DNA of 64,000 nt from Candidatus Melainabacteria bacterium 17Bon1m (lineage in GTDB: Bacteria; Cyanobacteriota; Vampirovibrionia; Obscuribacterales; Obscuribacteraceae). The stretch lies in contig JAVLKG010000001.1 of NCBI GenBank assembly GCA_032128875.1, positions 224,001 through 288,000 on the forward strand, read 5' to 3'. Numbering within the stretch: the first letter of the stretch is position 1; each line of letters starts with the position of its first letter. The notes beneath the pieces are model-generated. The model was not told the DNA's origin. It worked only from the letters and a program-made list of their open reading frames with translations, and searched no databases. The position numbers were made by a program, and so were the translations under genes. This document shows positions 444-23,920 of this stretch, one piece after another.

Positions 444-825
444 CGCTTCCTCTACCTTTGCAGCGGGGGTGAAACAGCATATATAGGTTTATATGACTCC
501 AGTAATGTGCCACACGCGGGATGTCAATCTAATCACCCTCCCACATTAATTGCAGAAATCTTCGCGATTGTTACCTGGGCAACGTTTTGGTTCTTATCCC
601 TTTCAATTTGGCTTCTTATTCCCTTCGATTTTGCAGTCAAGTGGATACCGAATTACTTGAGAGGTAGGTACTCTCTAGAGCTGGATTAAATGCCGGTTTC
701 GGCGAATTTAATCGGTAAATTCTGCAACAAAACGCCTATTTGCAAAGCAGTTAGTACAAATTAGTACTAAAATCCCTGAATTGCCGTTGGGCAAGATTAG
801 CCCCCTCACCGAAGAACGGAAAAAG

Positions 826-1683
826 ATGAAACTCAAACAACTGCCTTTAGCCCTCGCACTTGGAGGTGCACTTATGGTTAGCACTGCTGCATTTGCAGAT
901 ACTGCAAAAATTGAATTCCCTGCAGCCAGCCCGCTCTGCACTATGAAGCAGCGTGTTGGTTTGACTGATGTCGAAATCTCCTACTCCAGACCCGGAGTCA
1001 AAGGGCGCAAGATTTTCGGCGACATGATTCCTTATGGGAAGGTTTGGCGCACTGGCGCTAACGCCGCGACAAAGCTGGTCTTCAGCACGGACGTCAAGCT
1101 CAATGGGCATGATGTTCCTGCCGGTACTTACGCTCTGATGACCATCCCAGGCAAAGACGAGTGGACTGTCATCATCAACAAAGGCTCCGAGCAATGGGGC
1201 AGCTACAAGTATGACGAGAAGAACGATGTCGTCCGCTTCCAGGTCAAGCCAGTCGAGCTTGCTCATTCATTGGAAACGCTGACCTTCGATATCGAGAACA
1301 TCAAAGACGAGTCTGCTGACCTTGATTTGGTCTGGGCAACAACAAAGGTGCCGATCAAATTGGAAGTCAATTTTGTTGATAAGTTGACGAAGCAAATCGA
1401 AGCTGAAATGTCTTCGGACAAAAAAGAAAAGCCGTACTTCCAAGCTGCTAACTTCTGGTTCAACCACGACAAAGATTTGCAGCAAGCGAAGAAGTGGGTC
1501 GACGCGGCGGTTGCCGAGAAAGACGCTTTCTACATCGTGCACTTGCAAGCTAAGATTCTCGCCAAATTGGGCGACAAGGCTGGTGCATTGGCAGCGGCTA
1601 AGCACTCGACCGAACTCGCACAAAAAGCGAATGACACTGCATACGTGAAGCTCAATGAGACTCTCATCAACAGCTTGCAATAA
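826..1683 (+). CDS. DUF2911 domain secreted protein with C-terminal TPR-like helices
   Basis: Signal peptide MKLKQLPLALALGG; motifs QRVGLTDVEISYSRPGVKGRKIFG, PYGKVWRTGANAAT. Confidence 0.85.
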   Translation: MKLKQLPLALALGGALMVSTAAFADTAKIEFPAASPLCTMKQRVGLTDVEISYSRPGVKGRKIFGDMIPYGKVWRTGANAATKLVFSTDVKLNGHDVPAGTYALMTIPGKDEWTVIINKGSEQWGSYKYDEKNDVVRFQVKPVELAHSLETLTFDIENIKDESADLDLVWATTKVPIKLEVNFVDKLTKQIEAEMSSDKKEKPYFQAANFWFNHDKDLQQAKKWVDAAVAEKDAFYIVHLQAKILAKLGDKAGALAAAKHSTELAQKANDTAYVKLNETLINSLQ

Positions 1684-1689
1684 GGTGCG

Positions 1690-4314
1690 ATGAGGTTGTC
1701 CATTAGTTGGTCACTGAATTCGAAAGAGTGGCGTTGTGCATTCATCTCTTTGATGTGCGCGACGTCACTCTTTTCGAGTGTAGCGCAGAGCTATGCGGCG
1801 GTGCCCGAGGGAAGCTCGACCAACGCTGTTTCAAAAACTGTTTCTAAATCCAGCTCTGCTTTAGGAGTCAAGATGAAGAGTGATTCTCCCCAAGCGATTC
1901 TGCACGAACTGGAAAGTTTTCGGCAGATGGGCAGCGTGTTGTACATTGCCGCCCATCCCGACGATGAAAACACCGAGTTGCTTGCGTATCTAGCACGCGG
2001 GCGTAATTACCGAACCGCATACTTGTCTTTGACTCGTGGCGATGGTGGGCAGAATGTTTTGGGTGCAGATCTTGGTGCGAAACTCGGCGTCGCTCGCACG
2101 CAGGAGCTTTTGGCTGCAAGGCAGATTGATGGTGCGCAGCAATTTTTCTCGCGCGCCAAAGATTATGGATTTTCAAAAAACTATCTGGAAACGATGGAAG
2201 TCTGGGACAAGCAAGAAGTGCTGTCCGACATTGTTCGCGTGATTCGAACCTTTCGACCTGATGTGTTGATTACGCGCTTTTCGCCCAGCCCTGGTGGAAC
2301 TCACGGGCACCACACAACTTCCACAATTTTGGCGATGGAAGCATTCAAACTCGCCGGTGATGCAAATGCTTTTCCCGAGCAGAAGTTGGAGCCGTGGCAA
2401 CCGAAGCGAATCTTCTGGAATGCCTCTATCTGGCAGAAAGACAAAATAACTGACCAGACGGTTTGGAAGATTGATGCAACAGGCAATGATCCTGTTTCTG
2501 GTGAGAGCTTCCATTCAATCGCGAGCGAGAGCCGGGCGATGCACAAGACCCAAGGGTTTGATACTTTCAAGCTGCCTGGTGGTAATGGTGAAAAACGGCT
2601 TGAGTCCTTTCAGCTTTTAGATGGTGCCTCTATCGAGAAAGACATCATGGATGGTGTCGACACGAGTTGGCATCGTGTCAATGGTGGCGATGCAATTGAG
2701 AAATCAGCCAGCGAGATAATCGCGAAATTTGATATCAATGATCCAGCAAAGAGCGTTGGGGCTGTGTTGGAATTGCGCAAGCAACTGGCACAACTAATGC
2801 AGACGCCGGCTAATAGCAATGATGTTGTCTTAAAAGAGAAAGCCGAGCTTCTTGATCGTATTTTGCGGTCATGCATTGGATTGAGTTTTGAGACCACAAT
2901 TGCAAATGCGGAGATGGTTCCTGGCGAGTCAATGAAGATGCACTTGTCGGCATGGCTTAAGTCGAAATTACCTGACAAATTGCAAGTAAAATGGCTTGAT
3001 GTGCAGTTTCCCAAACTAGGCGCTAGCGACAGCACTCTTAAGGTGAATCAGACACTTGATCAACCGAGAAGCGTAGAAACTACAAAAATTCTCCCTGCAC
3101 AAACACCTCTAACTCAGCCATATTGGTTGACTTCCGAAGGGACGCCGGGAATGTTTCATGTTGATGTTCCTGCTTTGATCGGAACCGCCGAGAATTCTCC
3201 TGCGTTCCCCGTGTATGGAACCTTCCAAATTGCGGATCAAACATTGGTAGTTCATGATGAACCGCTGCAAGTGTCTACGGATTCGTTGGGTAACCGCATT
3301 CGACGTCGACTTGATGTGATACCGCCAGTCTCGTTGCATTTCCTCTCGGACGTTATAGTGATGAAGCCGGGAATGACGCGGTCTGTGGAAGTAGAGTTAC
3401 GTTCGTCGCGCGCTAATACAAAGGGCTCTCTGGAGCTGGAAGCACCTTCAGATTGGAAGATAGATCCGAAGAAGCAAACATTCAATCTAGCTGATGTGGG
3501 CGAAACCGCGAAGTTCACTTTCACTGTCACAGCGCCGAATAATGCAGCGACAACTAAGATAACGGCAAGTGCAGAAGTCGATGGCGAGCGCTATCACAAT
3601 CAAAGACAAATCGTGAGCTATGCACATTTGCCGCGCCAGCTCTTGCAACCACCCGCGGTGATGAATGCTGTCAGCTTTGATCTTGCTACTCGCGGACATA
3701 CTATTGGATACCTGCCTGGTGCCGGTGACAGTCTTGTGGAAAACCTGCAGCAGATGGGCTACGCAGTGAAAATCCTCGATGATGCCAATCTAACGGCTAA
3801 GGAGCTCGAGGGGGTCGATGCCGTAGTTATTGGTGTAAGAGCATTCAATGTGCGCAACAACATTGCTAAGGCTATGCCTGCGCTCTTCACTTATATTGAA
3901 AATGGTGGCACGGTAATTGCGCAATACAATCGGCACGACAAATTGAAGGTCGAGAAAATAGCGCCATACGAGTTGCACATTTCCAATGATCGTGTCACCG
4001 ATGAAAAGGCTCCCGTAACATTCCTTGCGCCGGACAATCCTATTTTGAATACGCCAAACAAAATCACGAATGCTGACTTTGAAGGCTGGGTTCAGGAGCG
4101 CGGATTATATTTCCCAAATCAATGGGATGAACACTTTACGCCAATCTTGGCCTTCAGCGACAAGGGCGAACTTCCGCATGCCGGCGGTCTTCTTGCCGCT
4201 CAGTACGGCAAGGGTTATTACATCTACACGGGGCTCGGATTCTTCCGACAGCTTCCAGCAGGCGTACCGGGTGCGTATCGCTTGTTTGCGAATATGGTTT
4301 CGCTAGGGAAGTAG
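1690..4314 (+). CDS. Secreted PIG-L/LmbE family deacetylase with C-terminal Ig-like (NEW3-like) and GATase-like domains
   Basis: AAHPDDE metal motif, LTRGDGGQN, RTQELLAAR, THGHH; C-terminal IGYLPGAGD, GWVQERGLYF, FFRQLPAGVPGAYRL; signal-like N-terminus. Confidence 0.85.
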   Translation: MRLSISWSLNSKEWRCAFISLMCATSLFSSVAQSYAAVPEGSSTNAVSKTVSKSSSALGVKMKSDSPQAILHELESFRQMGSVLYIAAHPDDENTELLAYLARGRNYRTAYLSLTRGDGGQNVLGADLGAKLGVARTQELLAARQIDGAQQFFSRAKDYGFSKNYLETMEVWDKQEVLSDIVRVIRTFRPDVLITRFSPSPGGTHGHHTTSTILAMEAFKLAGDANAFPEQKLEPWQPKRIFWNASIWQKDKITDQTVWKIDATGNDPVSGESFHSIASESRAMHKTQGFDTFKLPGGNGEKRLESFQLLDGASIEKDIMDGVDTSWHRVNGGDAIEKSASEIIAKFDINDPAKSVGAVLELRKQLAQLMQTPANSNDVVLKEKAELLDRILRSCIGLSFETTIANAEMVPGESMKMHLSAWLKSKLPDKLQVKWLDVQFPKLGASDSTLKVNQTLDQPRSVETTKILPAQTPLTQPYWLTSEGTPGMFHVDVPALIGTAENSPAFPVYGTFQIADQTLVVHDEPLQVSTDSLGNRIRRRLDVIPPVSLHFLSDVIVMKPGMTRSVEVELRSSRANTKGSLELEAPSDWKIDPKKQTFNLADVGETAKFTFTVTAPNNAATTKITASAEVDGERYHNQRQIVSYAHLPRQLLQPPAVMNAVSFDLATRGHTIGYLPGAGDSLVENLQQMGYAVKILDDANLTAKELEGVDAVVIGVRAFNVRNNIAKAMPALFTYIENGGTVIAQYNRHDKLKVEKIAPYELHISNDRVTDEKAPVTFLAPDNPILNTPNKITNADFEGWVQERGLYFPNQWDEHFTPILAFSDKGELPHAGGLLAAQYGKGYYIYTGLGFFRQLPAGVPGAYRLFANMVSLGK

Positions 4315-4315
4315 C

Positions 4316-6196
4316 ATGAACGGGCTGGACATATTCGTACTCATAGTGTCCATCTGCGCAATCGCATTGTATGGGGTCTGGCACACCAGAAATCGTCGCG
4401 ACCTCGATAGCTATCTCAAAGGAAGTGACCACACACCTTGGTGGGTAATCGGTATATCGGTAATGGCTACACAAGCCAGCGCGATCACCTTTTTGTCCAC
4501 CCCAGGGCAAGGATATCTTGGCGGATTGAGCTTCCTGCAAGTTTATTTTGGTGTTCCGATTGCGATGATAATCATCGCCGCCTGTTTTCTGCCGATCTTT
4601 CACAAACTACATGTCTATACAGCATACGAATATCTGGAGAAGCGTTTCGATCGCAAGACGCGTTTGTTCGGCGCAGGGCTGTTTCTCTTGCAGCGGGGCA
4701 TTGGAGCCGGTCTGACTATTTATGCTCCTGCGATTGTTTTGTCGACAGTATTCGGTTGGTCCTTGCCGCTGACCATCGTAGCGTGCGGACTTATCGCTAC
4801 TGCCTACACCGTATTTGGTGGTACCGATGCGGTTACTGTTACACAGAAGTATCAGATGGCTGTGATTTTTCTTGGTATGACGACTGCTGCAGGCATTTTG
4901 CTCTCGAAGCTTCCTGATGGTCTGACTTTCTTCGATGCGATGAATGTTGCCGGCGGATTTCAAAAGCTGAACGCTGTCAATTTGTCGCCAAGTTTGCACG
5001 AGCGGTATACGGTGTGGTCGGGATTGCTCGGCGGAACCTTCTTGATGCTGTCTTATTTTGGCGCAGATCAATCGCAGGTTCAGCGCTACCTTTCTGGGGA
5101 TTCTCTGCGTGAAAGCCGGCTTGGCTTGATGTTTAACGCGGTCTGCAAAATTCCCATGCAACTGTGTATCTTGATGCTTGGTGTGATGATGTTCGTGTTT
5201 TATCAATTCGAGCGACCGCCGCTGTTCTTTGACTCCGCTGCAAATAATTTTCTCGAGAGTCATCGAGGCGATGCTGTAGTTGCTAAGCAATTGGTTGGGT
5301 ATGAAGCCGAATTCAATAATCTGCACGATCAGGGCAAGCAGCACCTCATAAGTTGGTTGGCTGCGAAGCGCCGAGGAGATGAAAGCACTGCGACCGCTGA
5401 GTTTGTCAGTGCGGCAGTGACCCAGCAAGCAGGTGAGAAAGTGCGGTTGGCGGCGGCAAATGAGGTGACGCAGCTTCAAGCGCAAGGTGTTAGTGCTAAC
5501 ACTGCAATTGAGAAATCCACTGCAACTGAGAGATCCATTGCAACTGAGAGATCCATTGCAACGAAGGAGACTTCTGGCACGCCTTCTGAAAAGCCAGACT
5601 CCAAGAAAAGTAAATCTGTCTCTGCCACCAGTGCGGACTATGTTTTCATAACATTTATATTGCGTGAGCTCCCGCATGGTGCCATTGGTTTGTTGGTCGC
5701 GGCGTTCTTTGCCGCTGCTCTTTCGTCTAAGGCTGCGGAGTTGAATGCGTTAGGAACCTGTACCACCATAGACTTCTATCGATTGTTGATAAAACGCGAC
5801 GCCACCGATGCTGAGTCATTAGTGGCGTCGAAGCTTTTTACGGCTTTCTGGGGCGTTGTCGCTGTCTTCATTGCACTTTACGCACAGCTCTCTGAGAATC
5901 TCATTCAAGCGGTAAACATCCTTGGGTCAATTTTTTATGGTGTGCTGCTTGCGCTGTTCATCGTTGGTTTTTTCTTAAAGCGTGTTGGTGGCACCGCCCT
6001 ATTCTGGTCGGCGGTGATATCACAAACGCTGGTTTGCGTCTTGTACTTCAACCTGACGATTTCGTATCTCTGGTATCCGCTGATTGGTTGTGGCACCTGC
6101 GTGGTGATTAGTCTGCTTCTTCAGCTTGTTTTTGGTAACAACAATAAAAGCCGCAAGGATGCGGCCGTTCGTGGCGAGGTAGTGGAGGCGGCATGA
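4316..6196 (+). CDS. Sodium:solute symporter family transporter
   Basis: Many TM helices; SVMATQASAITFLSTPGQGY, YTAYEYLEKRF, SYFGADQSQVQRYL. Confidence 0.9.
   Translation: MNGLDIFVLIVSICAIALYGVWHTRNRRDLDSYLKGSDHTPWWVIGISVMATQASAITFLSTPGQGYLGGLSFLQVYFGVPIAMIIIAACFLPIFHKLHVYTAYEYLEKRFDRKTRLFGAGLFLLQRGIGAGLTIYAPAIVLSTVFGWSLPLTIVACGLIATAYTVFGGTDAVTVTQKYQMAVIFLGMTTAAGILLSKLPDGLTFFDAMNVAGGFQKLNAVNLSPSLHERYTVWSGLLGGTFLMLSYFGADQSQVQRYLSGDSLRESRLGLMFNAVCKIPMQLCILMLGVMMFVFYQFERPPLFFDSAANNFLESHRGDAVVAKQLVGYEAEFNNLHDQGKQHLISWLAAKRRGDESTATAEFVSAAVTQQAGEKVRLAAANEVTQLQAQGVSANTAIEKSTATERSIATERSIATKETSGTPSEKPDSKKSKSVSATSADYVFITFILRELPHGAIGLLVAAFFAAALSSKAAELNALGTCTTIDFYRLLIKRDATDAESLVASKLFTAFWGVVAVFIALYAQLSENLIQAVNILGSIFYGVLLALFIVGFFLKRVGGTALFWSAVISQTLVCVLYFNLTISYLWYPLIGCGTCVVISLLLQLVFGNNNKSRKDAAVRGEVVEAA
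5503..5563 (+). repeat. In-frame 18-bp tandem repeat in the symporter loop (AIEKST-ATERSI-ATERSI)
   Basis: TGCAACTGAGAGATCCAT x2 plus degenerate flanking copies. Confidence 0.85.
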
Positions 6197-6996
6197 CTTC
6201 TCCTGTTATATGTTTTGGGCAACAACCGTGTGGATTTTATCCGAAGCGGTTTTTGGTATCGAAGATTTTTACTGCACGGAGATTGCAGAAAGAGATCGGC
6301 GGCAAGATAGTATTTTTCTATCATGACAGCGATCACGATCCACGTGAGACGCGCACCATTCTGCGCCACCGCACTACAAATGATCCTGCGCAGCTCAACT
6401 TCACTTTCGAGAACAAAACGCAGCGAAAGTTCTCACCACTTTATGCAAAACGAATTCCAGGCGGTTGGCAAGAAAAGACGATTTTGCAGTTACCAAATTA
6501 CATCGACCACCCATTGATCAATATTTTCAAAGCGACGCACGTAAGTAACGTTGCTGATTTCTGCTTAGAAATGTATCGAGGCATGGGGCTGCTTGAAGGT
6601 ATTGAAGTTGTCAGATCCGGTAGCCCTGAATTCCGTCGCAGCGCCTGTGATATTACTGATTTCTATGTGGATGTTAATTACGACAACGAGATCGTCCGCG
6701 CGCGTGTTGCCGGAAACGTTCTAAAGTTGCATGAAGGCGGCAATGCATTTATCGAGCTGCCTATGGTGCCGTTTTCGAAAGAACAAATCAATCCGACGCG
6801 CGATACTCGTTTGCGCTGGATGCAGTCTGTGATTCATTGCACGCATTATATTGCGGGGGCGGGAGAGCAGGCATATTTGCACAAGGACGAAGCGCCTGAA
6901 ATTGAATTCGTAACACGGGATGAAATAGATTTGTCCGATGAGGCTTACGTAGAACTGCCATCGTCTAGTAAGAAGGAGGAAACTATTGAACATTAG
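6193..6996 (+). CDS. Compact BshC-like protein (putative bacillithiol cysteine-adding enzyme)
   Basis: GQQ, VFFYHDSDHD and YIAGAGEQAY resemble BshC GQQ, VFW..SEDHD and YIGGPGEIAY; lies directly upstream of bshB1-bshA. Confidence 0.6.
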   Translation: MTSPVICFGQQPCGFYPKRFLVSKIFTARRLQKEIGGKIVFFYHDSDHDPRETRTILRHRTTNDPAQLNFTFENKTQRKFSPLYAKRIPGGWQEKTILQLPNYIDHPLINIFKATHVSNVADFCLEMYRGMGLLEGIEVVRSGSPEFRRSACDITDFYVDVNYDNEIVRARVAGNVLKLHEGGNAFIELPMVPFSKEQINPTRDTRLRWMQSVIHCTHYIAGAGEQAYLHKDEAPEIEFVTRDEIDLSDEAYVELPSSSKKEETIEH

Positions 6997-7052
6997 TGAT
7001 ACCATCTTCTCAAGCGTTGTGTCGGATTTTGAGATTTCAGAGGAGGAGAGAA

Positions 7053-7772
7053 TTGAACGAAATTAGTTCTGCTCCTGTGTTGGCTTTTGGTGCGCATCCC
7101 GATGACATTGAGTTCGGCTGTGGAGGCGTGCTTGCGGTCGAGTCGCGCAAGGGACGTAGTGTACATTGCGTAATTTGCTCATTGGGCGAAGCCGCTTCCA
7201 ATGGCACTCCGGAAGGACGCCGTGCGGAATCTATCGCGGCGACCGAATGCCTCGGTGCAACTGTAGAATTCGTTGCGCTGGATGGTGACGCGAAATTAGA
7301 AATTCGCGCAGAACACACCCTCAAACTGGCTGAAGTAATTCGTCGTGTCCGACCATCTACTGTATTAGCGACAACTTGCTTTGAAAATCAACATCCCGAT
7401 CACTGGCGACTGGGAAAGATTGTTCGCGATGCTGCTCGCGTTGCGAGATATGGTGGATTAAAGGATGTGCAAGGCGAACCCCACGCAATCGGGCAGTTGT
7501 TCTATTACGCCGTAACGCCAGAAGGCGAACCTAACAATATTCATCCGATTTTGATCGATGTTTCTTCCTCAGACGTTGTGAATTCGTGGACTGCCGCAAT
7601 GGGCGCGCATGCCTCACAAGGTGCGACGCGCAATTACATTGATTTGCAATTGAATCGGGCTAGGGTTTGGGGTGCGCGCGCCGGCGTCGAATATGCTATG
7701 GCGCTGTTCCCGAATGATCCGCTGATGTTTGAATCGCTCGCTCAGGCGGGTAAAGGAGCGCGAAATTTCTAG
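7053..7772 (+). CDS. bshB1: Bacillithiol biosynthesis deacetylase BshB1-like (PIG-L family)
   Basis: AFGAHPDDIEFGCGG, LGEAASNGTPEGRRAE, QHPDH; AGGAGG RBS before TTG 7053; adjacent to bshA. Confidence 0.75.
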   Translation: MNEISSAPVLAFGAHPDDIEFGCGGVLAVESRKGRSVHCVICSLGEAASNGTPEGRRAESIAATECLGATVEFVALDGDAKLEIRAEHTLKLAEVIRRVRPSTVLATTCFENQHPDHWRLGKIVRDAARVARYGGLKDVQGEPHAIGQLFYYAVTPEGEPNNIHPILIDVSSSDVVNSWTAAMGAHASQGATRNYIDLQLNRARVWGARAGVEYAMALFPNDPLMFESLAQAGKGARNF

Positions 7773-8963
7773 GTGTCAAAGAATAATTCCAAATCGGATG
7801 CATTGAGAATTGGTATCACGTGCTACCCCACGGTTGGTGGCAGCGGTGTGGTGGCGACTACGCTTGGAATTGAACTTGCTCAGCGCGGACACGAGGTTCA
7901 CTTCATCAGCTATGAACGCCCATTTCGCTTGCCCGAAAATTCCTCTCGAATACATTTCCACCAGGTCTGTGTCAACGACTATGGTTTGTTCAAATATCCC
8001 GACTACACCTTGCCACTTTCCGTAGCAATGGCTAGTGTCAGTTGCAAGCACAATCTCGACATCTTGCACGTACACTACGCGGTACCGCACGCGACCGCAG
8101 CTTTGCTTTCGCGCTGCATGTTGCCTCCCGACAAACAACCTCGCATCGTCACAACATTGCACGGCACCGACACGACATTGCTAGGCGCAGACCCAGGGTA
8201 TGGTCCGGCAATTCACCACGCATTAATTCAGTCCGATGCGGTGACTACAGTGTCCGATTGGTTGAAATCAGAAACCAAACGAGTGATTGGATTTGACGGG
8301 GCAATGGAAGTTATTCACAACTTTTACGAGCCTGGCAAACCGTCGCGTACACGCGAAGCTGTTCGTCAGGACCTGGGAGTTGGTGATGAAGTCTTGATAC
8401 TTCACTCGTCCAACTTGCGACCACTCAAACGCATTGATTTATTGCTTGAATCTGTGGCGAAGATTCGCGACAGAAATTCATTCAAATTGTTGATTTTGGC
8501 GGGTGGTGATTTCAAACAATTCAGTGCCGATGTAAAACGTCTTGGATTGGAAGATCGCATTGTAGTTCGTGAAAACGTTCTGGAGATAGAAGAATACTTA
8601 CAGGCTGCCGACCTCGCTTTGTACACATCGGAAAGCGAGAGCTTTTGCCTGAGTATTTTGGAAGCAATGTTCTTTGGTTGTCCCAGCGTTGCAACGAATG
8701 TCGGCGGAATTCCAGAAGTTATTGATGATGGAGAGACTGGAATACTGGTGCCTTTTGGAAACGCTGATGCAATTGCGGAAGCATTGGAAGACCTGATCTT
8801 GGATAAGGCAAAACGTCAGCGCTTCGGCGAGAATGCTCGCAAGGAAGCGCAGCGTCGATTCTCTGCGGATGCAATCATCCATCGTTACGAAGAGCTGTAT
8901 CGTCGATTGCTTTGCTCGCCGCCATCGGTTGCCGTTGGAGAAGTTGTTGAAGGATGTCGCTAG
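7773..8963 (+). CDS. bshA: N-acetyl-alpha-D-glucosaminyl L-malate synthase BshA (GT4)
   Basis: IGITCYPTVGGSGVVAT, HEVHFISYERPFRL, HVHYAVPHA, TTLHGTD, SESESF..LEAM. Confidence 0.9.
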   Translation: MSKNNSKSDALRIGITCYPTVGGSGVVATTLGIELAQRGHEVHFISYERPFRLPENSSRIHFHQVCVNDYGLFKYPDYTLPLSVAMASVSCKHNLDILHVHYAVPHATAALLSRCMLPPDKQPRIVTTLHGTDTTLLGADPGYGPAIHHALIQSDAVTTVSDWLKSETKRVIGFDGAMEVIHNFYEPGKPSRTREAVRQDLGVGDEVLILHSSNLRPLKRIDLLLESVAKIRDRNSFKLLILAGGDFKQFSADVKRLGLEDRIVVRENVLEIEEYLQAADLALYTSESESFCLSILEAMFFGCPSVATNVGGIPEVIDDGETGILVPFGNADAIAEALEDLILDKAKRQRFGENARKEAQRRFSADAIIHRYEELYRRLLCSPPSVAVGEVVEGCR

Positions 8964-11339: not shown

Positions 11340-12560
11340 ATGCTAACTAAAAATCGAAATGAAGTCCTGTCGCTGCTGCTGACAGGCGCACGTTTGATCG
11401 ATATGCCGACCCTCGAACAAGGTTATGCTTCATCCGCCCGTTTGAGCACACCATTGCACAAAGTGCTTGTGATGCTGGGCTTCGTTAGTCAGTTCAAGAT
11501 GGACCGAGTGCTGCACGCAGAGACAATGATTCGCGTTCACGAGCTGTCGCCGGATCTGGCGGTGAAAGCACTGCGCATTGCGACAACGCAACAGCTCACA
11601 TTCGAGGAAGCGCTCGATGCGCTGGGCGACGAACACAAGAAAACGCAATTGATGCCAACTGCGTCCAACGAGATCACGAATCTTTTGGTCGAAGCAGGCT
11701 GCATCAACAACGAGCAAATAGGGCGAGCGCTCAAAACTTCGTTGGAGAACGGAATGCAAATGGGACGCGTACTTGTCTTTCATCGCGACGTCACCAGTCA
11801 GGTAATGAAGGCTGCGATTGCTTGCTGCATGTTGATGCAAGAAGAGAAGATTGGCTTGGCGTCAGCAGTTGAAGCGGTGAAGCATGTGCGCAAAACAAAT
11901 CAATCTGTAGAACAAGTGATGTTCCAACACAATATTTATCACGAAGAGCCAGGTCAGGGACCGAGGATTCATGAGCTTTTCGCAATGGCAGGTTTTGTGT
12001 CAGATACCGACTTGATGGAATGTCTCGAATTGCATGTATTGCGTGGACGGCAGATTGGTCAACTCTTTATTGAACAAGGTTTGATTAACAGTACCGTTTT
12101 GGAAAATGCGATTGTATTGCAAGGCATGGTCGCAAGTGGGGCCATCAAGGCGTATCATGCTGCAGAAGCCTTGAAGACGTCGTACAACAAAGAAGTTTCG
12201 ATCTATCAAGCTCTCGGCGAACTAAACCCCCCGGCATTTCCAGCAACGCCGAATCTCACTTTCGGTGAATTGCTTCTCTCTGCGAATTTGGTCAAGCGCG
12301 AAACGTACGACAGCTATTTCGAAGGACTCGAATTGTGTTCTCGGCAGATGGCGAAGAAACTTCTCGCCGCCGGAACGATCAACGACAAGACATGCGTCAC
12401 TGCATTGCGTGTGTTATCGCTGAACAACGAAGGATTTATCTCGAACAAAGATGCAGTCGAGATCCTTCGGCACGTGGTGTCATACGACGCGAACCTCGAC
12501 GAACAGCTTGCAGCCTGGGCTCACTTCGCACCAAATCGGATGCAATGGATCTGGCGGTAG
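11340..12560 (+). CDS. Protein built of tandem MshEN-like repeats (paralog 1)
   Basis: Repeated (I/L)GxLLxxAGxIxxxxLxxAL-type units, e.g. RQIGQLFIEQGLINSTVLENAIVLQ; full-length homolog at 22697. Confidence 0.7.
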   Translation: MLTKNRNEVLSLLLTGARLIDMPTLEQGYASSARLSTPLHKVLVMLGFVSQFKMDRVLHAETMIRVHELSPDLAVKALRIATTQQLTFEEALDALGDEHKKTQLMPTASNEITNLLVEAGCINNEQIGRALKTSLENGMQMGRVLVFHRDVTSQVMKAAIACCMLMQEEKIGLASAVEAVKHVRKTNQSVEQVMFQHNIYHEEPGQGPRIHELFAMAGFVSDTDLMECLELHVLRGRQIGQLFIEQGLINSTVLENAIVLQGMVASGAIKAYHAAEALKTSYNKEVSIYQALGELNPPAFPATPNLTFGELLLSANLVKRETYDSYFEGLELCSRQMAKKLLAAGTINDKTCVTALRVLSLNNEGFISNKDAVEILRHVVSYDANLDEQLAAWAHFAPNRMQWIWR

Positions 12561-13044
12561 AAACGATTTGCATGAGTGACAACTTCTATTTCAGATACAA
12601 ATAATAAATCCCCCCTGAAGTTTTTTGACTCATGCGGTGAGCAACGGTAGAAAGCGAGCTCGGCTATGCCTTTGAATTAAAAGCAGGCGAGTCCTTGGTG
12701 TCAGATTGAATTTCGCAAAAGGCGCTTGAAGTCAATTCGAACAAATTTGTAAGGTGATTTGTTGGCTGTCGATCTGGCGATCCCACTTTTGAGGGAACTG
12801 ACAACCCGTGGCGCGAGTTAAGTTCTGGAAGTCTAAGATCGGCTTGTGATTCGAGAGTTTTCTATATTTTCTTAGCAAGTTACCAGCGGGATAGTATTGT
12901 GGTTATAATTCTTGCCCTTGGGGTCTTTTGGCAGCAAATATATTTCCAGTGATTTTTTGCTGGCAGTTCATTTTCTTGTGTGGTTTTTTGCTCCACAAGC
13001 TCTCTTTGCGCACCCTCCATGTGCTCAGCATCATCATCATCATC

Positions 13045-13596
13045 ATGAACGAACAGAATGTGCAATCAGTTTTGCTGATAGGGAGCGGTTCAATCGCTGC
13101 TGGAAACATCGCTGGTTTGACCAGCAAGCTGTGTGAAAACTTTCGGGCTTCAGTGAGAGTTGTGTTGACGTCAGCCGCTACCAAGTTCACTTCGGTTGAA
13201 TTTATAAAATACGCTGGTGGCGCGCTGGAGGTTTTTACAGATCAAAGCACTCAGCAAATGTCGGACTTTCCGAATCACATAGCTCTCCCTGCTCAATCGG
13301 ACCTGACGATTGTCTATCCAGCAACCGCAGACTTCATCGGAAAAATGGCAAACGGTCTAGGAACTGATCTTGCCTCTACGATTATGCTTTATGCAGATCA
13401 AAACATAATTGTTGTGCCATCCATGAACGTGGAAATGTGGCGAAACAAGTTTGTTCAGAAAAATGTAAGAGCGCTCCAAGACGAGGGCATTCATATGATT
13501 GAGCCTAATGATGGTATGGCGCCATCAGTGGACGAGATAGTTGTGCAAGTGCAGAAGTATTTATCCCAAAAATTCAAAATTTACCAACAAATATAA
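13045..13596 (+). CDS. HFCD flavoprotein, EpiD/LanD-type peptidyl-cysteine decarboxylase
   Basis: GSGSIAA, NHIAL (EpiD-like His), PATADFIGKMANG, PSMNVEMW; no CoaB domain; start could lie further upstream. Confidence 0.8.
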   Translation: MNEQNVQSVLLIGSGSIAAGNIAGLTSKLCENFRASVRVVLTSAATKFTSVEFIKYAGGALEVFTDQSTQQMSDFPNHIALPAQSDLTIVYPATADFIGKMANGLGTDLASTIMLYADQNIIVVPSMNVEMWRNKFVQKNVRALQDEGIHMIEPNDGMAPSVDEIVVQVQKYLSQKFKIYQQI

Positions 13597-13609
13597 AGGA
13601 GAATTTCAT

Positions 13610-14320
13610 ATGTCAGTGAAGGCAGACGAGAAACACACAATTACTTTGGAAGTTAGAGTGCCGATAGCCGTTGACGAAGGAAAGCGAGCGAAGTTTGAAG
13701 ATGCAATGACAAATTTTATACTCGGTCACGATCGAATTCGTCCTGAACTTCATGATGCGTTAGTTGAAAGAGGTGTCGATATTAAACGCTTAAATGAGCT
13801 GTCTACTCCTGAAAAGCTGGGAGTTTGCAGATCAAAGGATGCTATGGAGTTCATTCCAACGCCTGAGCTTGTGGGTATAGGTAATAGAGCGGGAATAGAT
13901 TTTCGAGCTGGTGGAAAGCTCAACATTGAATTTGACTATTCAAATTCAAATGCTAGCAGCACGGATGTATTGGAAATGAAATTGCAATTACCATCTTCAA
14001 TTGAGGGCGTTGCTTCTGGTCAGGTTGGAAATATAATGAGGTCACTTTTTGGTGATTGTCACCTCTCAGTCAGAGCTCAGGATTATCTGCTTGCTCACGG
14101 AATTGATATTGCGGATTTGGCGGCTCAGAACATTGCGTCTTTAGGAAATGGAAGTGTTCCTCCAACTGCCCGAGTTGATAAATCTGTAGCAGATACATTA
14201 GATCAATTCGGATTGAACACCGCACGGCTAGGAAAAATTCAAGTGAAAGCTATGGCTGGTGATGCGGCACCGCTCAATGCGAATCCACCGATTGCGTGGA
14301 GCAAAACAACCTGCTGTTAA
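13610..14320 (+). CDS. Putative large-leader RiPP precursor ending PPIAWSKTTCC
   Basis: Strong AAGGAG RBS; two internally similar halves of about 100 aa; small-residue linker; C-terminal Cys; lies between the LanD-like gene and the rSAM. Confidence 0.6.
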   Translation: MSVKADEKHTITLEVRVPIAVDEGKRAKFEDAMTNFILGHDRIRPELHDALVERGVDIKRLNELSTPEKLGVCRSKDAMEFIPTPELVGIGNRAGIDFRAGGKLNIEFDYSNSNASSTDVLEMKLQLPSSIEGVASGQVGNIMRSLFGDCHLSVRAQDYLLAHGIDIADLAAQNIASLGNGSVPPTARVDKSVADTLDQFGLNTARLGKIQVKAMAGDAAPLNANPPIAWSKTTCC

Positions 14321-14328
14321 GGTGATTT

Positions 14329-15807
14329 ATGATATATCGTTCTATGGCGCCCCCGCAGTGGGGGCGCTTGCCAGGTCATATACAACTTGAGTTGGTACCG
14401 ACTCAGACACTCGTGGATGGTGAAGACACTATTCTCTTTCCGCTCCTAAAGCATTCTTGGCTCAGAGTATCAACCAAGGATCTAGAGAATGTGTTAATGC
14501 TTGATGGGCGTACTATCGACAGTATTCGCAATTCCCGCGAATCAATTAAGGACCTGATTCCGCTGTTGGATTCACTGTATTCCTCAGGTCTCTTATCCAT
14601 TGATGGACATAGTGGACTAGATGCAGAGCGTAAAGAAGAAACCTCTGGTCCGTCGACACTATTGATCAAGATGACTGGAGCTTGCAATATAGCCTGCAGC
14701 TATTGTTATGACTTTGATCAAAGTAGATGGAATGGACGTGGGAGTTCAACCCATGCGAAACATTTGATTGCTGATTCGTTTTCGGTCAATGATTCGATTA
14801 CTGTTATGTTTCACGGTGGTGAACCACTGCTGCATTTTTCTGAGATCAAAGAACTCGTATCGTTTGCAAACGAAATTGCCCATCGCGATGGAAAGAAAAT
14901 CACCTATTCCATTCAAACTAATGGATTGTTGCTGGATGAGGAGATCGTTCAATACCTTTTGAACGAGTCTTTTGACGTCGGCATTTCTTTGGATGGCCCC
15001 CTAGAAATTCATAATTTGTACCGTGTTGATCACAAAGGAAGGGGAACCTTCGAAGCATTAATAAAAAAATTCGATGAGTTTCCTGAATTTATGAGAACTC
15101 GAGTTGGATTTATGAGTGTAATTACTCAGAATTCGGTGTTTCATTTGGATCAAGTATGGCAATTCTTTCGAGATCTAGATGTTCAAACATGGAAACTGTC
15201 TCCAATGCTGCCGGAAGGTCGTGCATGTACAAATCAAGTGACTGCCAATTACATCGAGAGTTTTGTGGACTTTTTAGAAGAACGACTGCTGGAAATCATA
15301 AATGGAAGCTACCATCGCCCATACCTAATAAATCTGATTCAGGCAGTAGAACCATTTTTATCTCGTAATAGTAAGAATGTTTGTACTTCCTTTCCTTGTG
15401 GAGCTGGTCGTGATTTCGTGGTTTTAGATGCAAAAGGCGCACTGCGCTCGTGTGACTGCAGCTATCGTGATGACTTTTTTCTTGGCAATGCTGACTTTGA
15501 TTTGTTGAAGATGGTAAAGACTGAGTTTAAGAAAAGCGACCTGGCGAAGCGTGAACAGTGGCTTGTGGATTCTGAATGTGGACAATGTGTTTGGCTCCCA
15601 TTTTGCGGTGGAACTTGTCCCGCCGAAGCGCTCGCAAACACAGGAACTGTTCTAGCCGTTGACGAGCTGGAGTGCAACTTGCGAAAAAGGCTATTCCCAA
15701 GGATTGCAAAAGAAGTGTCTCAAGAAAGCTCGAACCTTCGCGAATATATTCAACAACGCCGAAGCGATAGGGCAAACTCTCTTACGAAGGTTAAGGAGGC
15801 CAGGTGA
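14329..15807 (+). CDS. Radical SAM/SPASM peptide maturase with N-terminal RRE-like domain
   Basis: CNIACSYC, FHGGEPLL, QTNG, ISLDG; SPASM C..CGAG...SC and CGQC-x5-C-x3-C...C; N-terminal extension of about 100 aa ending LDSLYSSGLL. Confidence 0.9.
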   Translation: MIYRSMAPPQWGRLPGHIQLELVPTQTLVDGEDTILFPLLKHSWLRVSTKDLENVLMLDGRTIDSIRNSRESIKDLIPLLDSLYSSGLLSIDGHSGLDAERKEETSGPSTLLIKMTGACNIACSYCYDFDQSRWNGRGSSTHAKHLIADSFSVNDSITVMFHGGEPLLHFSEIKELVSFANEIAHRDGKKITYSIQTNGLLLDEEIVQYLLNESFDVGISLDGPLEIHNLYRVDHKGRGTFEALIKKFDEFPEFMRTRVGFMSVITQNSVFHLDQVWQFFRDLDVQTWKLSPMLPEGRACTNQVTANYIESFVDFLEERLLEIINGSYHRPYLINLIQAVEPFLSRNSKNVCTSFPCGAGRDFVVLDAKGALRSCDCSYRDDFFLGNADFDLLKMVKTEFKKSDLAKREQWLVDSECGQCVWLPFCGGTCPAEALANTGTVLAVDELECNLRKRLFPRIAKEVSQESSNLREYIQQRRSDRANSLTKVKEAR

Positions 15808-22696: not shown

Positions 22697-23920
22697 ATGC
22701 TTACAAAAAATCGCGATAACGATGTCCTGTCGTTGCTTTTGACAGGCGCGCGGATTATCGAGCTCAGCACGCTTGAGGAGGGATATGCATCCTCTGCTCG
22801 CCTCAGCACGCCTTTGCACAAGGTTTTGGTCATGCTCAGGCATGTCAGTCAGTACACGATGGACAAGGCTTTGGCGGCAGAGACCATGGTACGGGAGAAT
22901 CAGATTTCGACGGACATTGCCGTTAAAGCTCTTCGTATTGCGACCACGCAACAGCTCTCTTTCGAGGATGCTCTGGCATCGTTGGGCGATGAGCACAAGA
23001 AAACCAACAATATGCCGAGCGCGTCCAACGAAATTTGTGACCTGCTCGTTGAAGCTGGAATCATCAATAACGAGCAGATTGGTCGCGCCTTGAGCACGTC
23101 ACTCGAAACCGGCATGCAGATGGGACGCATTCTGGTGTTCAATCGTGATGTCACGACCAACGTTATGAAAGCAGCGCTTACGTGCTGCATGATGTTGCAG
23201 GATGAAAAGCTCGGATACGCATCAGCTGTCGAGGCGGTGCAGTCTGTTCGTAAGACAAATAAGACTGTGGAAGAAACATTCTTCAGGCTCAATATCCATC
23301 ACGAAGAGCCCGGTCAAGGTCCAAAATTATACGAATTGTTCGCAATGGCTGGTTTTGTGTCGGACACTGACATGATGGAGTGTCTCGAGATTCACGTTTT
23401 GCGTGGAAGGCAACTAGGTCACATTTTCATTGAACAAGGTTTTGTGAAACATGAGGCTGTTGAAAACGCCATTACTTTGCAGGGCATGATCACTAGTGGT
23501 GCAATCAAGGCATATCAGGCTGCGGAAGCGCTTAAGAACGCTAACTTGAAGCAGATATCGATCTATCATGCGCTTGGCGAATTGGACCCACCGGCGGTGC
23601 CACCCACACCCACGTTGACGTTCGGACAGCTTTTGATTTCTTCCGGGATTGTTCATCCCGAGATGATGGAAGGTTTGATGGGCGGCATGGAACTCAATGC
23701 CCGTCAGCTTGCGAAGAAGGCATTGTCTGCGGGATATCTCACAGACAAGTCGTGTGTTACAGCGTTGCGTTGTTACTCGCTAAACAGTGAAGGATTCATC
23801 TCGAACAAGCAATGCGCTGAAATTCTCAAACAATGTGCGACACATGATTTGAACCTTGACGAACAGCTCGCTAAGGGCGGGCATTTTGTGCCGAATCGAA
23901 TGCACTGGATTTGGCGTTAG
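22697..23920 (+). CDS. Protein built of tandem MshEN-like repeats (paralog 2)
   Basis: Colinear homolog of 11340-12560 (shared GYASSARLSTPLHKVLVML, ELFAMAGFVSDTD, PNRMxWIWR). Confidence 0.7.
   Translation: MLTKNRDNDVLSLLLTGARIIELSTLEEGYASSARLSTPLHKVLVMLRHVSQYTMDKALAAETMVRENQISTDIAVKALRIATTQQLSFEDALASLGDEHKKTNNMPSASNEICDLLVEAGIINNEQIGRALSTSLETGMQMGRILVFNRDVTTNVMKAALTCCMMLQDEKLGYASAVEAVQSVRKTNKTVEETFFRLNIHHEEPGQGPKLYELFAMAGFVSDTDMMECLEIHVLRGRQLGHIFIEQGFVKHEAVENAITLQGMITSGAIKAYQAAEALKNANLKQISIYHALGELDPPAVPPTPTLTFGQLLISSGIVHPEMMEGLMGGMELNARQLAKKALSAGYLTDKSCVTALRCYSLNSEGFISNKQCAEILKQCATHDLNLDEQLAKGGHFVPNRMHWIWR

Follow-up and report, generated by a model that had tools for sequence, protein, structure and literature searches.

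A half-size protein with the BshC core takes the place of BshC in a bsh operon of Obscuribacterales and other soil and freshwater bacteria

The closest described counterpart of the protein reported here is BshC of the bacillithiol pathway. According to the accessible part of PMC5790435, bshC itself was first identified by its co-occurrence with bshA, and the cysteine donor of BshC is unknown; this source and PMC4360819, in the excerpts available, describe the BshC reaction, a stated open problem, as never reconstituted. Surveys of bacillithiol producers demand a full-length BshC, as far as the excerpts of PMC6282198 and PMC12719100 go, and in one of the two Verrucomicrobia and Planctomycetes appear without a predicted low-molecular-weight thiol. 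The full-text literature that was searched describes no short protein resembling BshC. Here we analysed a window of 64,000 nucleotides from Candidatus Melainabacteria bacterium 17Bon1m (assembly GCA_032128875.1, contig JAVLKG010000001.1, positions 224,001 to 288,000), in which an open reading frame (ORF) with an ATG start at 6193..6996 of the + strand encodes a protein of 267 amino acids, given the working name X267. We found that X267 replaces BshC in the operon of many soil and freshwater bacteria that are not known to make such a thiol. On the basis of its sequence and predicted structure, our judgement leans towards X267 being a compact homologue of the BshC core, a core-only enzyme that would carry out the BshC step, with cysteine as the most probable group attached.

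The structural relation to BshC was assessed on an AlphaFold (AF2) model of X267 built from a 39-sequence alignment, which had a predicted local distance difference test score (pLDDT) of 93.4 and a predicted template-modelling score (pTM) of 0.89; a single-sequence run (pLDDT 31.9) was discarded. In a Foldseek search of the PDB the top match to this model was BshC of Bacillus subtilis (4wbd; E 7.3e-11, TM 0.61 normalised to the query), followed by a class I lysyl-tRNA synthetase (LysRS) at E 1.2e-4. VIA-align placed residues 1-259 of the model on residues 82-522 of the 4wbd chain with Z 20.1, a root-mean-square deviation (rmsd) of 2.8 Å, 244 of the 267 residues aligned and 17% identity. The runner-up was the class I LysRS 1irx (Z 14.6), and the other class I synthetases stayed at Z 9.2 or below, the GluRS, TyrRS, CysRS and GlnRS structures giving Z 7.5-9.2. 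For profile comparisons, 24 BshC relatives were aligned, seeded with the canonical BshC from a genome of a second phylum (L085). The hhalign comparison of the 39-sequence X267 family with these 24 sequences gave 89.9% at E 1.7e-6 over 219 columns, and a local rerun gave 93.2% at E 3e-7, with X267 residues 1-249 on BshC residues 83-401. In the ESM Atlas, the named clusters nearest to X267 were the PF10079 BshC Rossmann clusters (score 0.90, 10 hits). An earlier note on this DNA had proposed a minimal Rossmann-core BshC, to be checked by comparison with the B. subtilis structure; the similarity seen by Foldseek, VIA-align and hhalign is both strong and specific, and the word minimal is apt because X267 aligns to BshC from about residue 83 to 401 only. 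By profile and predicted fold, X267 is the BshC Rossmann core alone. It stands outside the BshC family as now defined, as it fails the family models and has neither the coiled coil and the N-terminal domain nor the C-terminal invariants.

The core motifs of BshC are kept in X267. The motifs GQQ (residues 9-11, 6217..6225), DSDHD (residues 45-49, 6325-6339) and YIAGAGEQAY (residues 219-228, 6847-6876), which had been read in the 267-residue ORF beforehand, were all confirmed in the ORF listing. In the profile alignment, G9, Q10 and Q11 correspond to the invariant G91, Q92 and Q93 of BshC, and the stretch H44-D-S-D47-H48-D49-P-R-E52 (6322..6348, + strand) corresponds to (E)D135-H136-D137..E140. 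Further along the + strand, R206..Q211 (6808..6825) align to the invariant R335..Q339, and within H218-YIAGAGEQAY228 (6844..6876) the residues G222, E225 and Y228 align to the invariant G351, E354 and Y357. Forty-seven BshC columns are conserved at 90% or more, of which 34 have an aligned partner in X267 and 13 do not. In 15 of these 34 columns the residue is the same and is likewise conserved at 90% or more in the X267 family (G9, Q10, Q11, K24, D47, H48, D49, E52, G132, R206, Q211, G222, E225, Y228 and P235). GQQ is kept in 37-38 of the 39 family members and in 24 of the 24 BshC sequences. The X267 family also has invariants of its own that are without a BshC counterpart, namely C7, H44, D45, S46, C124, H218 and many arginines and lysines. 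Even among members at only 30-45% identity, C7, C124 and H218 do not vary; a zinc site like that of CysRS or MshC was considered for these three, which from the strand order may be plain core residues.

X267 was found to belong to a large family of uniform length. A search of 5.8 billion proteins gave 7210 candidates, of which 6912 are homologues at E<=0.001, and the best 120 of the 6912 are 254-282 amino acids long and 71-88% identical, carry no Pfam domain and bear, where any name is given, the name hypothetical. With phmmer, 239 matches at E<=0.001 were obtained among 1.84 billion cluster representatives; the best 150 of the 239 are 49-475 amino acids long and none has the length of BshC, so that phmmer does not see the link between X267 and BshC. 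When one genome per species was scanned, at least 567 genomes were found to hold a relative of X267. The best 80 of these genome records are all metagenome-assembled genomes and, by titles of which some are unreliable, belong to Obscuribacterales or Melainabacteria, in many cases to Verrucomicrobiota, and in a few to Phycisphaerales or other groups. A record with the title Acidoferrum, for example, came from the same phylum group as one titled Verrucomicrobiae. The 39-sequence alignment, with members down to 30-44% identity included, has 21 invariant columns, and across 80 genome loci X267 is the best-conserved gene of the operon, with a median identity of 69% to the window protein versus 56-68% for its neighbours. 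Judged from these comparisons, the conservation of the ORF is far beyond chance. A reading of X267 as a truncated bshC pseudogene was rejected because of this high conservation and the constant length of about 256 amino acids. A search for longer forms returned 11 proteins, all single sequences, in which X267 is fused to its PIG-L, symporter or glycosyltransferase family 4 (GT4) neighbour. One of them (P0391, 495 amino acids on a 2.4-kb contig, a single metagenomic sequence) reads as a clean fusion of X267 and a BshB-like deacetylase, and in the apparent PIG-L fusions P0393, P0398 and P0400 the sequence is garbled in places, in the manner of frameshifts. Four PIG-L fusions were read in all, and three of them look like artefacts. 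The fusion proteins were not counted as evidence.

X267 could in principle be what is left of a BshC that has lost catalysis, or it could be unrelated to BshC, an enzyme of the nucleotidyltransferase or class-I-synthetase-like kind whose gene happens to lie beside bsh genes. Such a reading would account for the missing half of BshC, for the failure of every BshC model to score X267 and for the match of class I synthetases to the same fold. We regard it as very improbable, as X267 is better conserved than any other gene of its operon, its conservation falls precisely on the core motifs of BshC, the BshC match lies 5.5 Z units over that of the best synthetase, and the co-occurrence of X267 with BshA is perfect in two genome samples, as described below. 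A split BshC whose coiled coil is encoded elsewhere was also rejected, because a scan of the organism's own genome gave chance-level matches only (E 0.28-7.5).

The gene context further places X267 at the BshC step. Six tightly packed genes occupy 781-8963 on the + strand of the window. The module starts with a DUF2911 protein (781..1683; PF11138, E 9e-57), which has a putative signal peptide by eye, and continues with an 874-residue protein (1690..4314) that also has a putative signal peptide by eye and carries an N-terminal PIG-L/LmbE domain; the best NCBIfam match of this domain is the conjugate amidase Mca, at 53.8 bits and below the cut-off. A sodium:solute symporter (4316..6196; PF00474, TIGR00813), X267, a BshB-like PIG-L/LmbE deacetylase (6996..7772; PF02585) and BshA (7773..8963), the N-acetylglucosaminyl L-malate synthase of the GT4 family, follow. 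BshA passes the TIGR03999 equivalog model with 404.4 bits against a cut-off of 273.7. The best NCBIfam match of the BshB-like protein is BshB1 (TIGR04001), with 132.6 bits versus a cut-off of 182.5, and its closest solved structure is BshB1 as well (6p2t, E 1.6e-22). By sequence reading, a GGAGG ribosome-binding site (6184-6188) lies four bases 5' of the X267 ATG, which overlaps the TGA stop of the symporter gene as ATGA (6184..6196 for both elements, + strand), and the last base of the TAG stop of X267 is common to the GTG start of the deacetylase gene. X267 is translationally coupled to both neighbouring genes. In the canonical operon of the second-phylum relative (L085:723-4510), an S-adenosylmethionine (SAM) methyltransferase-like ORF of 252 amino acids is followed by BshC, BshB and BshA, whereas the order here is X267, BshB-like and BshA; therefore X267 sits exactly at the place of BshC, in agreement with what the earlier note had read from the window. 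The L085 operon lies in a genome of 2.0 Mb, and its methyltransferase may be an NmbA-type N-methyl-bacillithiol synthase.

The arrangement was compared over 80 genome loci and 80 metagenome loci, the latter fetched with divergent X267 members that included relatives at 39-55% identity to the window protein; the denominators below are the loci with enough flank. In the genome loci, a BshB-like gene lies directly downstream of X267 in 67 of 73, BshA within 2 kb downstream in 61 of 65, the symporter directly upstream in 62 of 73, the large LmbE protein upstream in 57 of 63 and DUF2911 upstream in 56 of 62. Among the metagenome loci, with members at only 44-55% identity included, the gene next to X267 encodes a BshB-like protein or BshA in 49 of 51, and BshA is within about 2.5 kb in 33 of 37. 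The gene order of the module is kept across phyla. A predicted complex of X267 and the BshB-like protein (score 0.00, mark 0.32) carries no weight either way. The symporter of the window has, midway through its transporter domain, a long insert of low complexity (about 100 residues), rich in serine, threonine, lysine and glutamate and with a repeated ATERSI motif, and its Pfam match falls into two stretches.

The distribution of X267 was compared with those of BshA and BshC in samples of the window organism's order (81 genomes), of the second phylum (151 genomes) and of the class of G305, a BshC-bearing genome of the second-phylum sample (101 genomes), with many incomplete assemblies among them. 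In the order sample, 33 of the 81 genomes carry X267, and BshA was over the cut-off in 32 of these 33 carriers, the BshA of the 33rd being cut by a contig end; BshA was over the cut-off in 0 of the 48 genomes without X267, and BshC was found in 0 of the 81. A sample of the organism's own phylum contained X267 in 1 of 151 genomes, which was its own genome, and within this phylum the X267 family is confined to one order. In the second phylum, X267 is present in 7 of 151 genomes, and BshA was over the cut-off in eight, which are those seven and G305. The seven carriers have no BshC; G305 has BshC and no X267, and was the sole BshC genome among 201 sampled. In the class of G305, BshC was found in 9 of 101 genomes and X267 in 0 of 101, and four further X267 carriers that were reached via their loci have no BshC. 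In total, 44 X267 carriers were examined, none with BshC, and 9 BshC genomes, none with X267. The examined genomes with BshA over the cut-off always have X267 or BshC, never both and never neither. A full-length bshC elsewhere in the organism's own genome, a question raised by the earlier note, was not found (93% complete, best E 0.276).

From the predicted fold and the retained motifs, together with this context, we infer the substrates, the chemistry and the attached group as follows. BshA would join N-acetylglucosamine (GlcNAc) and L-malate, and the BshB-like deacetylase would free the 2-amino group. X267 would then acylate this amine of glucosamine (GlcN)-malate, using the activated form of an amino acid that is most probably cysteine, and the product would be bacillithiol or a close analogue. 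In this scheme X267 would act without the N-terminal domain and without the coiled-coil dimerisation domain of BshC.

Several observations weigh against this proposal. X267 gave no match to any Pfam-A or NCBIfam model even at E<=10, and a six-frame scan of its own genome with TIGR03998 at E<=10 did not report the X267 locus. Searches of the PDB with phmmer and with a 20-sequence X267 profile returned chance matches only (8fre_A, E 0.1; 7bkb_L, E 0.54) and did not find 4wbd. X267 is without the N-terminal stretch of about 82 residues, an insert of about 40 residues and the C-terminal coiled coil of BshC, and the conserved BshC residues R53, N64, L80, R378, P498, Q503, E504, R505, G517 and H535 have no partner in it; if the invariant residues R53, R378, P498, Q503, E504, R505 and H535 are catalytic, X267 must work differently. 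Since the BshC reaction has never been reconstituted, to say that X267 works like BshC defines no chemistry yet. The BshB-like protein stays below the BshB1 cut-off, and the exported-looking LmbE protein, DUF2911 and the symporter are not needed by a simple biosynthetic reading. In five genomes (L019, L021, L024, L027 and L049, with X267 at 6001-~6790 of each locus), where BshA directly follows X267, no BshB-like protein was found at E<=1e-10, with no positive control among them. One of these five records is titled as a complete chromosome. Deacetylation of GlcNAc-malate in these genomes may fall to the large LmbE protein.

The partners of bacillithiol in redox metabolism are missing as well. 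Neither YtxJ nor BrxA/B (PF06491) was found in the organism's own genome, whose best YpdA match reaches 78.3 bits versus a cut-off of 339.9; YpdA was over the cut-off in 0 of the 81 genomes of the order, where the carriers G200, G223 and G228 have YpdA-like genes of 258-274 bits, below the cut-off, in assemblies with contamination estimates of 6-7%. In the second phylum, the four X267 carriers that were checked are all without YpdA and YtxJ, and the BshC genome G305 has both over the cut-off (YpdA 428 bits, YtxJ 113 bits). This absence in the carriers suggests that X267 may attach something other than cysteine, or that the thiol may be used differently, and it makes the attachment of a different group, an option that the earlier note had already raised, more likely. 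An enzyme of the same class, acting on the same GlcN-malate acceptor, would then add a non-cysteine group and give a non-thiol conjugate, such as another aminoacyl- or acyl-GlcN-malate, that is no cytoplasmic redox buffer. Besides the missing YpdA, YtxJ and BrxA/B, the family's own invariant residues listed above, the loss of the C-terminal BshC invariants and the tie of the operon to an exported-looking LmbE protein and a symporter would agree with such a product. We nevertheless consider this rather unlikely, because X267 and BshC are strictly alternative among BshA-positive genomes, as would be expected of functional equivalents, and because the shared BshC core motifs are all kept in X267. 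The own genome is also without a glutathione pathway by the two models tried, neither GshB nor cyanobacterial GshA reaching the cut-off, and to our knowledge only the bacillithiol pathway uses GlcN-malate. The core-only enzyme that attaches cysteine remains the reading that we prefer.

The upstream genes of the module raised a further explanation, in which the six genes serve mainly in salvage or recycling. The exported LmbE/Mca-like protein would cleave external or periplasmic amino-sugar conjugates, the symporter would import the GlcN-aglycone and X267 would re-ligate it, the BshA product being only one of the sources of its acceptor. The large LmbE protein is present in 32 of 33 X267 carriers of the order and in 0 of 48 non-carriers, the synteny of the module is kept across phyla, and the best, sub-cut-off match of the LmbE domain to Mca would fit as well; salvage would also explain the extra genes. 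In the part of PMC5790435 available, Bca-type cleavage is described to give GlcN-malate for the recycling of bacillithiol. Several lineages, however, keep X267, BshB and BshA without the upstream trio, and 6 of 63 loci do not have the large LmbE protein. The export of this protein and of DUF2911 was judged by eye only, and no substrate is known for the symporter. A module devoted mainly to salvage is, in our view, improbable, and biosynthesis through the compact BshC-core enzyme is retained as the preferred role.

In the order sample the genes of the module are inherited together, and within a genus only some of the genomes have them (for example 5/9, 4/13 and 3/8); this pattern suggests a horizontally moving island. 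We tentatively suggest, as a possibility that goes beyond the X267 step, that the six genes form an island which has spread horizontally among Verrucomicrobiota and Obscuribacterales of soil and freshwater, and among other bacteria, and which serves to make and recycle a small molecule that is built on GlcN-malate and works outside the redox machinery known for bacillithiol. If this is true, the molecule would be either bacillithiol in a new use, for instance in a conjugation and recycling loop of the envelope or the extracellular space, or a new conjugate, and a protein of 256 amino acids would be the smallest unit that can catalyse the BshC reaction.

Other genes of the window lie apart from this module. 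At 12928-15807, a flavoprotein of the HFCD type (PF02441, 12928-13596), a 259-residue ORF ending in TTCC (13541-14320) and a radical SAM enzyme (14329-15807) are adjacent, and by their sequences these three genes look like a peptide-modification cluster resembling those of ribosomally synthesised and post-translationally modified peptides (RiPP-like). Two further ORFs, of 406 (11340-12560) and 407 amino acids (22697-23920), have weak, sub-threshold matches to the C-terminal model of fumarase C and may be paralogues.

As a naturally occurring enzyme with half the length of BshC and the core motifs alone, X267 would show which parts of BshC are dispensable, and it may be an easier object than BshC for biochemistry and structural work. 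With relatives in at least 567 species genomes, the family offers a protein that may fill the missing step in just those groups which the surveys had left without a thiol. That carriers have neither YpdA nor YtxJ points to recycling enzymes that are not known so far or to a new product.

Among the named systems, BshC (YllA of B. subtilis, 4wbd; TIGR03998, PF10079 and PF24850) has a Rossmann-type core fold in common with X267, together with the motifs GQQ, D-H-D..E, R..Q and G-x-x-E..Y and the same position upstream of BshB and BshA. The two differ in size, BshC having 509-594 amino acids versus about 256-267 in the X267 family, and in the PF24850 coiled-coil domain and the C-terminal invariants, both present in BshC and absent from X267. 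This coiled coil is described as a dimerisation element in the available part of PMC4360819. A further hallmark of BshC is that its mutants contain no bacillithiol and build up GlcN-malate. The action proposed for X267 would parallel that of MshC, the mycothiol cysteine ligase and CysRS homologue. In the mycothiol pathway a GT4 enzyme and a PIG-L deacetylase act first, and MshC, which has the class I synthetase fold, then couples cysteine to the amine of the deacetylated GlcN-aglycone. The same route is described in the excerpts of PMC5790435. No sequence relation between MshC and X267 was detected, the CysRS structures match the X267 model weakly (3sp1_B, Z 8.4; 1li7_B, Z 7.9), and neither the HIGH nor the KMSKS string is present in the X267 sequence, as read by string only. 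The class I LysRS 1irx aligns to the model over 212 residues with an rmsd of 3.0 Å and 11% identity, and differs in that X267 is without an anticodon-binding domain and has a gene context unrelated to translation. By its predicted structure, X267 has the Rossmann-like catalytic fold of the class I aminoacyl-tRNA synthetase/HUP superfamily, and its GQQ occupies the same position as the GQQ of BshC.

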